Source of the DNA: Pseudomonadota bacterium
GTDB lineage: Bacteria > Bdellovibrionota_B > Oligoflexia > Oligoflexales > RGVZ01
Length of the DNA stretch: 64,000 nt
NCBI GenBank assembly: GCA_041178085.1
Contig: JBEGVZ010000037.1
Span: 12,722 to 76,721, forward strand
Reading direction: 5' to 3'
Within the stretch, counting starts at the first letter, position 1. Every line of letters begins with the position of its first letter. The position numbers are program-made. Positions 52,701 to 64,000 of this stretch are shown piece by piece.

Positions 52701-55700
52701 GAATCCGCGTCAATGCGATCAGTGCCGGACCGGTCAAAACTCTGAGCGCGAGCGCCGTACATGGCCTTGACGATATGCTACGCCTGCACCGCGAGGTCGC
52801 GCCCATGCGCCGGAATATCACCGGCGAAGACGTAGCTGGCACTGCCTGCTGGCTTGCCTCTGCCAACGCCTCGTCCATCACGGGTGAGGTGATTCACGCA
52901 GACTGCGGGTACCACGTCATGGGGGGGCCACCAGTCCCCTTGAAAGAAATCGCCTCGGCCACCGCACAATTCCAGAAAGGTATGTGACCCATGTCTGTCA
53001 TGCGCCTGCTGACCCAGAAACGCTTCGGCCCGTTTTTCCTGACCCAGTGTTCAGGCGCCTTCAACGACAACGTGTTCAAGAACGCCATGGTGATCATGCT
53101 GACCTACAAGTCAGCATCGGAGTCTGAAGGCGGATTGATGGTGAATGCGGCAGCGGGCCTGTTCATCCTCCCCTTCTTCCTGTTCTCGCCGATTGCAGGT
53201 CGCATTGCGGACAAGTTCGACAAGGGCAGGATCATGCGCGTGGTCAAGGTTTCCGAGATCGCCATCATGATGCTCGGGAGCGCAGGGTTTTTTCTCAGTT
53301 CGATCCCGATTCTGTTCACTTCTCTTTTCTTGATGGGTGTTCACTCGACCTTCTTCGGCCCGGTGAAGTATTCCATCCTGCCTCAACATCTGCGTGACGA
53401 CGAACTGATGGCGGGCAACGCCCTGGTTGAGATGGGCACCTTCCTTTCCATCCTGACCGGTACGCTGCTGGGTGGCACACTGGCAGCAAAACTGGCGGAT
53501 AGTGCCGGACATAATCACGGAGCCGCAATCACAGCAGCGTGGGTCATGGGGATTGCGATCGCAGGGTGGTTGTTTTCGCTCTTTGTCCCGAAAGCGCCCG
53601 CGGCGGATCCGGACCTGCCTTTGCGCTTTGACTTCATCCGCGATACCCGCGAACTGATCCAGATCTGCAAGCAGCGGGAAGGTATCTGGAACGCCGTAAT
53701 GGGAATTTCATGGTTCTGGTACTTTGGCGGCACGTTCCTGGCCCAGCTACCCTCTTTCGCCAAACATACGCTTGGCAGCAATGACCCGGCCCTTACGACC
53801 GTGATGCTGGCTACATTTTCCGTCAGTGTGGGCATTGGCTCGCTCCTGTCAGAAAGGCTCTCCCGGGGGGATATTGAGCTTGGCATGATTCCCCTCGGTG
53901 CCCTTGGCATGTCGATTTTTGCGGCTGATTTGTGGTTGCTTGATCCAGCCTCTGCCGCCAAGGCGAAGATCGCCTGGGAATTCGTGGGACTGAACGGGGT
54001 CGATGTGCCCTGGCGAGTCCTGTTTGACATCGGAATGTGCGGGATCAGTGGCAGCCTGTTCATCGTCCCACTCTATGCCTACATCCAGCACCGGTCTGAA
54101 GCACGCACCCGGTCACGCTTGATTGCAGCCAATAACCTGTTCAATGCTGTGTTCATGGTGGCATCCGCCCTGTTCACAATAATGTTCTATAAACTCGGCT
54201 TGAACACGGCAGAAATCCTGCTGGTCTCTGCCATCATGAACTTGCTCGTGAGCGGGTGGATCATCGCACTGATTCCAGAATTCTTGATGCGCTTTGTTGT
54301 CTGGATTCTTGCTTCGACGATCTACCGGATCCACTACAAGGGACGGGACCTGATTCCCTCCTCGGGTGCGGCTCTGGTTGTTGCCAACCACGTTTCGTTC
54401 ATTGACTGGTTTATCCTGGCTGCTGCCTGCCGCCGCCCCGTCCGGTTTGTGATGGATCACCACTTCTTCATGGTTCCGGGCATCAAAATCTTTGCAGAAG
54501 CGGCCAAAGCAATCCCAATCGCACCTGCCAAGGAAGACGCCGCCTTGAAAGAGAAAAGCTTCGAACTGATTTCTGCTGCGCTGCGCGAAGGTCACATCGT
54601 ATGTATTTTTCCTGAGGGAGGGATCACCAGAGACGGCAAGCTACTGCCCTTCAGACCTGGTGTTGACCGCATCCTTCGCACTGACCCCGTACCTGTTTAT
54701 ACGATTTCATTAAACGGCCTTTGGGGCAGTTTCTTCTCACGCAAGGGTGGGCGGGCCATGAGCCGACTACCGCGCCCCTCATGGCGTGTCATCGATGTGG
54801 AGATCCGGAAATTCGAGGGCAAGGCTGGCCAAAGCGGCGAAAGCTCCTGGGCGGGAGCCCTGCAAAAGCAGATCAGCGAAATGGTTGAACCGGTCTGAGC
54901 ACCGCGAGCGCACCTGCACATTCTGCAAGTGGGGGATCAATCATTTGCACCCTCGTGATGGATCCAGCCGGTGTCAGGGGGCTGGTATCCATCAATACCC
55001 GCAAGTCCAGCAAGCGTCTTTCCCCGTCAACAGAAACCACTTCTGCGTCCTGAAACCAGAAACGCCTGCGACCAGCAGGAAAGTGGCACTTGAAAAGGGC
55101 TTCCTTGGCGACGAAGACGTCGACCAACGACAGCTTTCCGGCTGTCACCATCGCAGATTCCACAGCAGTGCAAATCTTGTCAATCAGCGCTGGCTTTACA
55201 CGACTGGAGTGCTCGATATCAAGGCCGACGGAGACGACATCTTCGTTGCCTGACAAAGCTACGGAAACTTGACCGAGGGAGTGGCTGACTGATCCGCACG
55301 TGCCCGGCGGCCATACGATCAATCCGTCCGCGTCGCGGACGGGATCATCGGAAACGCCGAGCACCTGTCGAACCAGGTAACGGCTGCGCAGGAATTCGGC
55401 GCGGCGGGCAGGATGAGAGATCGTCCTTAATGTCCGCTGACTTGCAAAAGATAATCCTGACAGCAGGGCCTCTTCAGGCACAGCCACGTCACGGTCCAGG
55501 AAAAGGACCCGGGTGCCGTTTGGTGCTGTCATTGCCTGTATGTTCAAATACGACCGGTCGCCTGCAAATAGATGATAGAACTGAAGGGCATCTCACCGAA
55601 TTCGCTGTCCGTCCCGCCACTGAAGAAAGTCGGATTCACCGACAGCGATATCAGCGGTGATATTGAACGCCTCAGTTCAACACTTGCGAACGTGCTCTGG

Positions 55701-61700: not shown

Positions 61701-64000
61701 GTGATGGCAACGCGGGGCTTTCCTTTATGCGGCAAGGTCCCGTTCACGCTCATGAAATGCCTCCCGCTGGCCTGGCTCCGGGATGTGTCGTCACCAGCAA
61801 AGCTGAATTGGAACCACCAAAGCCGATTGAGTTGGAAAGAGCCGCACCAATGCGGGCGGGACGGGCTTTCCCCGGCACAAAATCAAAACCGTAGCCGGGA
61901 ATCGGATTCTCAAGGTTGATGGTCGGTGGCACCATCTGATCCCTGAGCGCAAGAACGCAAAACATCAGCTCGAGTGCGCCGGAAGCAGAGATCAGGTGAC
62001 CCGTTGAACTCTTGGTGGAAGACACGCACAAGTCGCGACGTTGCTCACCAAAGACGCGCTGGATGGCAAGGCACTCAATGCGATCGTTCAACTCGGTTGA
62101 TGTGCCGTGGGCGTTGATGTAACCGACATCATCGGGAGTCAAACCCGCCATGGCCACGGCCTCCTGCATGGCTTCCACCGTGCCACGCCCATCGGGGGGC
62201 AAGTCGGTGATGCGGAAGGCGCTTTCTGTTTCACCGAAGCCAGCAAGCTCGGCATAGATTCGCGCGCCGCGCGCAAGCGCCCTTTCGCGTTCCTCAAGGA
62301 CGAGCATCGCGGCACCTTCACTGGCGACGAAGCCGTCGCGATCCTGATCAAAAGGTCGGGATGCCCGCTGCGGGTCGTCGTTCCGCCGACTCAGGGCGCC
62401 AAGCAGGCAGAAGCCAGCCAAAAGCAACTCACCGGCAAGGGAATCCGCGCCACCGGCGAGGATCACATCCGCTTCACCGCGCTGGATCTGCAACAATGCC
62501 TGGCCGATCGACTGCCCGCTGGATGCACAGGCTGTGTGTACTGTCGTCACGGGCCCGCGCGCATTCCAGCGGGAGGCAAGCAGGTAAGCAAGCGTGCCCG
62601 GATGGTTGCGCAAGAAAATACGAGATTCGGTCTGCTCTTGAACGACACGTCCAAGGTCTGCGAAATTCCCGCTGTCCGTTAGGCTACGGAGCATCGTCGC
62701 CAGTTCCTTTGGACTCACGGCCCCGATGCCGACACCGACACTGATGCCGAAGTCACCGGGCGAACAATCCAATGACTCGCCTTGCAACAACCCGCTATCG
62801 CGCATTGCCTCAAGGGCTGCGACCAGTCCAAACTCCGAGGGGCGATTGAGGTACTTCTCGTGACCCGGCGCACATGCATCGACGGGAAAACTGAAATCCT
62901 TGACTTCGCAGGCAAACCGGACTGGCCACGTTGACGCATCAAAATGCGTGATCGGACCCGCTCCGCTCCTGCCTGCACAGACGTTCGCCCAAGAGGTTTC
63001 ACGATCTCCGCCAAGTGGCGAAACCGCACCGACTCCAGTGATCACGACACGACGTTTCAAAGGGAAACCTCCGCAGGAAGCGGCGGCGCAACCCACTGCG
63101 CGCCATGAGCAATGTCTGTTGCAAACATGGTGCGGAAACCCATTTCCGCCTGTAGTACGCGATTGCCGTTGGCGGTGGCCACGGCCTGGACCACAACGTC
63201 AGAGTTGTGCTTCCGGGCATCGCCCGACTTGACCTCTGCCTTAACGATGAACTGGTCGCCCGGTTCGACGAACTTTCGCAAACGGACGTTGCGCACCCAT
63301 GTGGGGATCAGCGCCCTGCCACGAACTGGTGATTCCAGCTCTTCCTTCACCAGGTACTGGCAGGTCTCCCCCACAATGCTCAGCATCAAAACGCCAGGTA
63401 CGACCGGCTTGCGCGGGAAGTGGTCACGAAAGTAGGACTCAGAAGATGCGCAGTTCTTGAACGCCACGACCTTCTTACCGGGCTCGTGGGTCACAATCCC
63501 GTCCAGAAGACGAAGGGTTTCGAAAGTCGAGAAACCGGCCACCGGTTTCAGTTGCTCCGCCTCAAGGAGTTCCGGGGGCGGAGTCGCTGCCTTCAATTCG
63601 GGACGATAAAGGCGCTGGAACATGCGCCGCAGGTTTTCAGGGTCATCGAATTCATGCATCGGCAGCAGGTAACCGCGCCCACAAGTGCTGATCTGGATGG
63701 GGTTGCCCCGCACGCTGGCCCGGCTGCGAGTGATGACGACGTCTTCGTCCTGGTCGACAATCTCGACCGCCAATTCGATCTGGTCGCCAGGTTCTGCAAC
63801 CCCGCAATAGACCGTAAGTTCGTCGGCGAGCAAGACTGGCCGCTTTTGGAAATCGGTTGCCACCATCTTCAACAAGGCGGCGATTTGCGCCCCGGCTTCC
63901 GAGATCACAGTCGGACTGAGCACACGACGACCATCAGGAAGCCAATAAAAAAATGGCTCGTTCCTGGTCACATTTTTGATCCCGCGAATGAACTTGCCTG

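Follow-up and report, generated by a model that had tools for sequence, protein, structure and literature searches.

In L. pneumophila, lpg0359 encodes an ACP, lpg0361 and lpg0362 encode ketosynthases and lpg0363 encodes a lipid A acyltransferase (PMC13200437, PMC9112007), and the lipid A of this species holds C27–C30 acids (PMC7867332). Loci of the lpg0358–lpg0363 type consist of an enoyl reductase, an ACP, a dehydratase, two ketosynthases (KSs) and the lipid A acyltransferase WaaM, a layout also present in NC10 and in other metagenome loci. By analogy with the rhizobial acpXL–lpxXL cluster (i.e. acpXL-fabZXL-fabF2XL-fabF1XL-lpxXL), which makes C26–C30 chains, the Legionella locus may be the maker of its very long acids (PMC5613085). 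Ladderane Cluster I of anammox bacteria unites a cobalamin radical-SAM enzyme with an ACP, a FabZ and a KS/chain-length-factor (CLF)-like FabF pair (bioRxiv 2026.05.19.726425; PMC13459092). Methyl transfer by proteins that combine B12-binding, radical SAM and DUF4070 domains has been confirmed in one clade alone, that of the hopanoid C-2 methylase HpnP, which is the sole branch with an assigned function (PMC10697835).

A gene cluster was examined in a 64,000-nucleotide stretch of an Oligoflexales genome (i.e. the window). Eight ORFs, all on the minus strand and with no internal stops, occupy positions 54873–64000; they overlap or abut at six of seven junctions, the sole gap (~110 bp) lying before the radical-SAM gene. 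The end of the window's contig overlaps contig C120 by 121 bases, and C120 bears an ACP gene, as a preliminary description of this DNA had proposed, and also, in frame, the initial dehydratase residues. An 8,707-base contig from another run spans 62405–64000 and extends beyond the window end. An intact operon with a linked ACP and exporter on the overlapping contig bears out the earlier claim of one conserved gene cluster. The features are:

52151..52987, plus strand: second FabI enoyl-ACP reductase (FabI models), two genes off and outside the cluster coordinates
54873..55547, minus strand: 4'-phosphopantetheinyl transferase (PPTase; PF01648 and PF17837)
55544..56728, minus strand: predicted outer-membrane beta-barrel (AlphaFold2 and Foldseek) outside any named family; signal peptide present
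56725..58461, minus strand: HpnP-like B12-binding/radical SAM/DUF4070 enzyme (PF02310, PF04055, PF13282)
58573..59340, minus strand: 3-oxoacyl-ACP reductase (KR; TIGR01830, 266 bits; NNAG and YAASK present)
59310..60452, minus strand: stand-alone acyl-thioester reductase (TR), an NAD_binding_4 extended SDR (PF07993, E 9e-33)
60425..61753, minus strand: catalytically dead, CLF-like KS partner (Asn replaces the Cys and Glu the second His)
61750..63060, minus strand: active FabF-like ketosynthase (PRK07314; Cys-His-His)
63057..64000, minus strand: fused double hot-dog 3-hydroxyacyl-ACP dehydratase (DH; 327 aa, PF07977), with its ATG beyond the window end at C120:17452
C120 16947-17429, plus strand: long ACP, upstream of the dehydratase
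C120 15523-16827, minus strand: FtsX/LolE-type permease, divergent from the ACP
C120 14774-15526, minus strand: LolA-like protein, next to the permease and upstream of the ACP
C120 14062-14805, plus strand: ABC ATPase
C120 11244-14111, plus strand: three lipoproteins

No promoter or terminator match was found in the gap between the ACP and permease genes. The PPTase gene adjoins that of the barrel or the KR in the related clusters that were read. An M14 peptidase gene adjoins the cluster in five genomes but not in this one, and was set aside as probable synteny. An MFS-acyltransferase gene neighbours the cluster; none was found next to the other clusters read.

Homologues of the CLF-like partner were detected in 14 of 131 class genomes and five families, which reproduces the earlier count. 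The order ACP-DH-KS-CLF-TR-KR-rSAM, previously reported for six of seven genomes, was contiguous in eight of these 14 (including this genome, whose cluster spans the junction); in two more a contig break interrupts the order but the pieces agree with it, and in the other four it is rearranged or scattered. A commoner sister cluster, which lacks both radical SAM and exporter, had been missed; the long ACP is present in 36 of the 131 genomes. The radical-SAM enzyme occurs in all 14 CLF genomes (16/131 overall) and the barrel in 12 (13/131 overall), as compared to none of the 18 genomes in which the long ACP occurs without this cluster type, and so both travel with this type of cluster. Variants carry additions, a DUF3419 gene in G040, L125 and L127 and a GH3 enzyme in G022, and other long-ACP clusters bear a Tes-like radical SAM.

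The active KS retains HTACAS, HGTST and the second His, while its partner has Asn at the active-site Cys position; relatives have Gln, Ala, Glu or His, extending the range given by the preliminary description. Profile scores for the KS were above the cut-off for PRK07314 (434 versus 387 bits) and below it for TIGR03150 (445 versus 494). Alignment of the dehydratases showed an N-terminal-domain Glu that is invariant in 18 of 18 rows and a C-terminal-domain His-Phe-Pro in 17 of 18. Phylogenies were built for the KSs, the largest with 105 rows chosen from 117 KS ORFs plus references (long fusions, duplicates and some loci being left out) and two others from hand-picked subsets of 44 and 25 rows. 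Partner KSs of the cluster and its sister cluster formed one clade in the 25-row tree (support 98/95), sister (98/98) to the second KS of clusters linked to a lipid A acyltransferase (i.e. Legionella and NC10); the same grouping was recovered in the 105- and 44-row trees. The rhizobial partner KS and the aromatic CLF are long branches of unsure placement.

Identities to a Legionella-named locus were 47% for the ACP, 29% for the dehydratase (both domains), 46% for the KS and 30% for the partner, as compared to lower values (39, 25, 36 and 27%, respectively) for the Sinorhizobium acpXL-type locus. Among 80 metagenome loci, 14 show the fused dehydratase, both KSs and sequence beyond them; the slot after the KS pair holds a lipid A acyltransferase in 11 and this reductase in three, and never both. 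In the operon studied here the slot is taken by the TR and no lipid A acyltransferase follows the KS pair; two PF03279 genes lie elsewhere in the genome, as they do in G094, which has no cluster. The core therefore reads, by sequence kinship, as a FAS-II-type very-long-chain elongase, because its nearest kin are the enoyl reductase-ACP-DH-KS-KS'-lipid A acyltransferase clusters. The earlier designation as an orphan type II PKS stands as regards dedicated ACP/KS-CLF chain-building but not as a label. The KS-CLF-ACP minimal set of aromatic type II PKSs is present; one aromatic KS/CLF reference pair falls outside the clade, and no cytoplasmic cyclases were found in the cluster, its only START-fold protein having a lipoprotein-like N-terminus. 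Streptomyces plasmid clusters with a long ACP (32–35%) have another gene set and also lie outside the clade.

Our main reading, to which we assign a probability of about one half, is that the cluster encodes a dedicated FAS-II-type elongase making an outer-membrane lipid by long-chain synthesis, reductive release, methylation and export. The PPTase would prime the private ACP, which bears an insert of ~50 residues. Acting as a putative heterodimer, the active KS and the dead one would lengthen an acyl chain far past the usual size of fatty acids, to about C24–C30 by analogy. Such a pair need not make long chains, because the ladderane KS/CLF-like pair prefers C8 to C16 probes (bioRxiv 2026.05.19.726425). 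After each extension, the KR and fused dehydratase together with an enoyl reductase would carry out the reductions, so that the chain ends up largely saturated. The candidate enoyl reductase is the second FabI here, and a FabL-like or cluster-borne FabI in relatives. This second FabI (54% identical to another FabI, on C42) is a paralog that occurs in six of the seven genomes of the genus and was not found in the cluster-less G094; of the genomes seen, this one and G091 alone have it close to the cluster. The sister cluster is headed by a FabI in G087 and G088, whilst a FabL-like SDR sits in the G040 cluster. In G093, which has one FabI match only, the paralog could be the housekeeping enzyme; G038 likewise gave one FabI match and carries no sister cluster.

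The principal alternative, close to the earlier interpretation, is that a highly reducing type II PKS, in which enoyl reduction is incomplete, yields a polyunsaturated chain that is methylated and set free as a polyene aldehyde or alcohol. The operon does contain the core set of such systems (i.e. KS, CLF, ACP, KR and DH) and no enoyl reductase, and an extra FabI is linked in only the two genomes mentioned. However, the KS scores higher against FabF (344 bits) than against the actinorhodin KS (272) or 6kxd (192), which we take to be the ishigamide KS, and the nearest clusters bear enoyl reductases, a FabL-like SDR being present in 19 of the 80 metagenome loci. The enoyl reductase candidates of the family had previously been overlooked, and a polyene product is considered unlikely.

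In the elongase reading, the NAD(P)H reductase would release the chain as an aldehyde or, most likely, a primary alcohol, a step at which the Legionella-type relatives would pass it to lipid A. Catalytic motifs of the TR (i.e. GxxGxxG, Ser and YxxxK) are invariant in 16 of 16 rows, and its best solved relative is MxaA (E 7e-15). The earlier match to Thioester-redct corresponds to TIGR01746, where the TR scores 92 bits (cut-off 213), on a par with PRK07201 (94) and below every curated cut-off. Reductive release itself was supported, as was the prediction of an undescribed long-chain alcohol or aldehyde.

The next step would be the addition of at least one SAM-derived methyl group at unactivated chain carbons by the HpnP-like enzyme, whose motif is CPFNCEFC. 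The B12-binding, radical SAM and DUF4070 domains support a B12 radical-SAM tailoring enzyme, and the term methylase is inferred from this HpnP-like domain set. In a 46-row tree without a verified HpnP, cluster-linked enzymes formed no exclusive clade, close relatives at ~50% occurring outside such clusters, and in G021 and G022 the enzyme is unlinked to the cluster; plasmid relatives from Methylobacterium and R. tropici were dropped as HpnP references since no neighbouring cyclase was recognised. According to a review (PMC13459092), ring formation is also among the reactions of B12 radical-SAM enzymes, and the same long-chain core might instead supply an enzyme that makes rings or C-C cross-links, as in GDGT ring synthase or ladderane formation, with no methylation. 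The arrangement of ACP, FabZ, active and dead KS and B12 radical SAM is that of ladderane Cluster I, and the Tes-like radical SAMs of other long-ACP clusters point the same way. Against this, the enzyme scores 62 with TIGR04072 (cut-off 360), the operon has no phytoene-dehydrogenase-like gene and the only branch of the domain set with an assigned function is a methylase, leaving ring formation rather improbable.

It is more doubtful still that the radical-SAM enzyme acts on another lipid (i.e. a sterol, hopanoid or head group) and that the cluster yields a fatty alcohol without modification. Related enzymes do occur unlinked near other envelope genes. The genome's only cyclase row is an oxidosqualene-cyclase-like fragment at the end of C4; the preliminary description had correctly placed it there but had called C4 a contaminant, which composition does not support, 27% of 300 genome chunks being as far in tetranucleotide distance. 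No squalene-hopene cyclase match over the cut-off was found in 12 of the 14 CLF genomes, nor any cyclase row in the six other genomes of the genus. The radical-SAM gene directly follows the KR in 10 of the 14, remains beside the CLF block in the rearranged G040 and G041, and is fused to DUF3419 within one cluster.

Export of the elongase product would proceed through the ABC permease, the LolA-like protein, a START-fold lipoprotein and the beta-barrel, to the outer membrane or surface. The MacB/LolA-like exporter of the preliminary description was confirmed as an FtsX/LolE-type permease, a LolA-like protein and an ABC ATPase; the barrel and START folds had escaped it. The exported protein is, on its AlphaFold2 model (pLDDT 86.5), an outer-membrane beta-barrel, with AlgE, MOMP and Occ porins as top Foldseek matches (E 1e-11). 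The linked lipoprotein has a START lipid-transfer fold (CERT START: Z 13.4, rmsd 3.4, 187 aligned). That the exported form is not the free alcohol but a larger ether, ester or amino-acid ether lipid, built by enzymes encoded elsewhere, is suggested by the DUF3419 (presumably a BtaA-like aminocarboxypropyl transferase) and GH3 variants and is very improbable, as this genome has no DUF3419 match and no MFS-acyltransferase neighbour was found at the other clusters read.

A more specific form of the elongase reading is advanced tentatively: the HpnP-like enzyme may methylate (or cyclise) unactivated carbons of an ACP-bound very-long-chain acyl group, giving an undescribed methyl-branched C24–C30 alcohol or diol that is delivered to the outer membrane by the ABC/LolA-like/START-lipoprotein/barrel route, the system having arisen when the lipid A acyltransferase in a locus for very-long-chain fatty acids was swapped for a reductase. 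If true, the HpnP family would have a non-terpenoid substrate, and cobalamin radical-SAM methylation of a fatty chain would be a reaction absent from those in the accessible part of a 2026 review (PMC13459092). The widespread HpnP-like proteins are uncharacterised, and what they do is relevant to the origin of the 2-methylhopane biomarker enzyme (PMC10697835). The operon pairs such a protein with the enzymes for a candidate substrate, which makes the question testable in a laboratory host with the sister cluster, which lacks the radical SAM, as a natural control. An undescribed envelope lipid and export route are also predicted for the Oligoflexales, an almost wholly uncultured order. Literature searches, mostly without subscription papers, returned, among the matches listed, no account of this cluster under DUF4070 radical SAM, under highly reducing type II, thioester reductase or CLF, or under Oligoflex BGC or fatty alcohol. 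Searches of the same scope found no report on lipids of Oligoflexus or Pseudobacteriovorax, Legionella octacosanoic acid with an ACP and acyltransferase, or Bradyrhizobium methyl-branched very-long-chain fatty acids.

Compared with HpnP and HpnP-like proteins, with which it shares all three domains, the radical-SAM enzyme sits in an acyl-chain operon and most of its carriers have no triterpene cyclase. The TR resembles MxaA terminal reductase domains and fatty acyl reductases in its NAD_binding_4 fold and intact catalytic motifs but is a stand-alone protein serving a type II system. Beyond the components shared with ladderane Cluster I, the cluster has a radical SAM of another family and adds a TR and an exporter. 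The private ACP, the FabZ and the two FabF-like proteins (one active, one Cys-less) of the rhizobial set have counterparts here, but at only 25–39% identity and in different KS clades, and the rhizobial cluster has a single FabZ and ends in LpxXL, no lpxXL being found within the present cluster. The rhizobial ACP is also shorter (95 versus 160 aa), and the ACP here scored 45 bits against a cut-off of 83 with PRK06508, which we take to be AcpXL. With the Legionella-type locus the cluster has in common a long ACP with an insert, a fused double hot-dog dehydratase, an HTACAS KS, a second KS from a sister clade and the order ACP-DH-KS-KS'; it differs in that the acyltransferase is replaced by a reductase, the partner KS has lost the second His too, and an HpnP-like enzyme, a PPTase of its own and a trans-envelope exporter are added. 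These comparisons suggest that one very-long-chain elongase core has been reused with varied end enzymes, i.e. lipid A acyltransferase, reductase, GH3 or Tes-like radical SAM.

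The eight genes that the preliminary description had assigned to the cluster (i.e. a fused double hot-dog dehydratase, DH; a ketosynthase, KS; a partner KS, CLF; an acyl-thioester reductase, TR; KR; an HpnP-like radical-SAM enzyme, rSAM; an unnamed exported protein; and a PPTase) were all found at 54873-64000 on the minus strand, each of them intact, with neighbouring genes overlapping by a few bases in most cases. GC content and third-position GC were near the values of the surroundings. The window ends with contig C37, which has a 121-base overlap with contig C120; the latter supplies the dehydratase start and the ACP gene. 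A permease of the FtsX/LolE type and a LolA-like protein are encoded divergently from the ACP, and their genes converge on those for an ABC ATPase and three lipoproteins. A matching junction was observed on single contigs in same-genus genomes, and the named relatives were Oligoflexales MAGs. As separate housekeeping FabF, FabZ, FabG, ACP and FabI homologs occur in this genome, the cluster represents a second, dedicated system. Its flank contained the following genes:

52991-54898, plus strand: MFS-acyltransferase fusion (LplT/Aas-like), convergent with the PPTase gene
43072-52113, plus strand: trigger factor, catalase-peroxidase (opposite strand) and a clpP-clpX-lon block, ordinary genes read from translations

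No such acyltransferase fusion was seen beside other clusters of the window's type.

The cluster KS retained Cys-His-His, and the partner KS had Asn at the Cys position and Glu at the second His position. In the dehydratase, an invariant Glu lies on the first of two hot-dog domains and a His-Phe-Pro motif on the second; from FabZ motifs, we take these to form one active site common to both domains. The ACP carried an insert of ~50 residues covered by no solved ACP. The reductase exhibited an NAD_binding_4 fold with intact motifs; its best solved relative was MxaA, and the reductase itself scored below every curated cut-off. B12-binding, radical SAM and DUF4070 domains were found in the rSAM. 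The unnamed exported protein was predicted to be an outer-membrane beta-barrel (pLDDT 86.5) with AlgE and porins as fold matches, and a lipoprotein adjoining the ABC ATPase, whose homologs adjoin the cluster in at least 7 other genomes, had a START fold (Z 13.4, rmsd 3.4, 187 residues versus CERT START). Fold likeness alone does not establish function.

Of 131 genomes of the class, 14 had a CLF homolog, as had been claimed; many of the genomes are incomplete and, because they are kin, neither this nor the other distribution counts represent independent events. The reported order ACP-DH-KS-CLF-TR-KR-rSAM was contiguous in 8 of the 14 and consistent across contig breaks in 2, the other 4 being rearranged. 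The long ACP (36/131), fused dehydratase (34/131) and reductase (34/131) were more widespread because a sister cluster exists, ACP-DH-KS-CLF'-TR (CLF' being its partner KS), with KR and FabI adjoining in most of the six loci read (L102 10138-17149 of genome G087, L103, L104, L105, L107 and L118). The sister cluster, in which FabI and KR where present precede the ACP, has neither radical SAM nor exporter; it occupies a larger share of the order, and both types apparently occur together in six genomes. A second CLF or second KS-CLF pair with an extra dehydratase, suggesting staged elongation, was present in L031-L032 (G040), L034 (G031), L029 (G030) and L033 plus L019 (G022). At L026 7764-7883 (G093), the dehydratase start looks frameshifted, by assembly error or as a broken gene.

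Scanning metagenomes with the ACP alignment yielded 562 matches; among the best 80, which were retained, 14 loci covered the fused dehydratase and both KSs and continued past them. The KS pair was followed by a lipid A acyltransferase in 11 of the 14 (one cut by a contig end) and by a window-type reductase in 3; the 11 include one locus named Legionella sp. and one named NC10. Three trees placed the partner KSs of both Oligoflexales types as sister to the second KS of the acyltransferase-linked loci (support of 95, FastTree; 99, SH-aLRT; 98/98, mixture model), and the Sinorhizobium acpXL-type pair and one aromatic CLF lay outside that grouping. Some related long-ACP elongase clusters end in a fusion of AcpS to a lipid A acyltransferase (L140 4234-5490; L156, L169, L170; the related L160 is named NC10). 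Long-ACP/multi-KS clusters with a tetraether-synthase-like radical SAM were also seen (L109 10475-15695 of G001, 187 bits versus a cut-off of 450; L134, L138, L148, L162, L164), some with a nitroreductase or aminotransferase. Streptomyces plasmid clusters (L122 13955-26571; L123 10879-22232) combined a long ACP, several KSs, a fused double KS, KSIII and an ester cyclase.

We propose, at a probability of about 0.5, that a very-long, largely saturated acyl chain would grow on the private ACP, be methylated, be released as an alcohol and be exported to the outer membrane, the direction of transport being assumed from context. A polyene product is doubtful. FabL-like SDR and FabI associations suggest enoyl reduction: the SDR occurred in 19 of the best 80 metagenome loci and in G040, and FabI adjoins the sister cluster. 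A second FabI (52151-52987) has a paralog in 6 of the 7 genus members covered, and none was found in the one that lacks the cluster; its linkage to the cluster only here and in G091, among genomes seen, and the single FabI of G093 count against it as a cluster enzyme. A ladderane KS/CLF-like pair favours short probes in the available text of bioRxiv 2026.05.19.726425, a warning that chain length is not readable from layout.

For HpnP-like proteins with this domain set, the available texts of PMC10697835 and bioRxiv 2025.07.29.667474 describe them as uncharacterised, confirm methyl transfer only within the HpnP clade and include myxobacterial homologs without a cyclase. A cyclase match over cut-off was absent from 12 of the 14 rSAM-carrying partner-KS genomes; a hopanoid substrate is therefore unlikely. 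The rSAM grouped with Oligoflexales and planctomycete proteins at good support, and the intermixing of cluster-linked and unlinked members in this group argues that it was probably recruited out of a wider envelope-lipid role. Ring formation in place of methylation, though unlikely, gains weight from the available text of a 2026 review of lipid-modifying radical-SAM enzymes (PMC13459092): ring-forming members appear there, and none of the enzymes it gives is a fatty-chain-methylating cobalamin enzyme. That the rSAM is a passenger is less probable again. Least probable is that the alcohol, the end product in our proposal, is an intermediate of a larger lipid. The rSAM was found in 16 of 131 genomes, among them all 14 partner-KS genomes, and the barrel in 13, of which 12 belong to the 14. 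Neither protein occurred in any of the 18 genomes holding the long ACP without the window's cluster type (G092, G039, G001 and G023, which are cut, mixed or distant, being set aside).

Contig C4 of this genome (L214) is, over its whole 3,461 bases, a sterol-type operon fragment with a cyclase C-terminus (PF13243) followed by ORFs read by eye as squalene monooxygenase and a CYP51-ferredoxin fusion; its composition was not foreign, and 6 further genomes of the genus gave no cyclase match. In three variants (L127 6525-9455; L031 7187-8284; L125 59-1192), a DUF3419 gene lies next to the cluster rSAM or forms an N-terminal fusion with it; this genome has none. Plasmid HpnP-like genes of Bradyrhizobium (L124 7986-10490, beside a lipid A acyltransferase) and Acaryochloris (L212 1724-5605, beside a fatty acyl-AMP ligase) are further hints of an acyl-lipid setting.

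All enzyme classes of the cluster are already known, and topic searches of the literature at the level of listings returned no description of this combination. A relative of the core can be recognised, and the potentially new chemistry is a prediction. For an HpnP-like enzyme, the cluster provides a candidate substrate together with a natural control. Its layout resembles VLCFA and ladderane clusters, although it does not qualify as a member of either. In the available texts, L. pneumophila has an ACP (lpg0359), KSs (lpg0361/0362) and the lipid A acyltransferase WaaM (lpg0363) (PMC13200437, PMC9112007), with C27-C30 acids in its lipid A (PMC7867332), and a rhizobial five-gene cluster produces C26-C30 acids for lipid A (PMC5613085). 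The rhizobial VLCFA cluster and the Legionella locus follow the same logic and, by analogy, lpg0359-0363 may be the maker of the Legionella C27-C30 acids.
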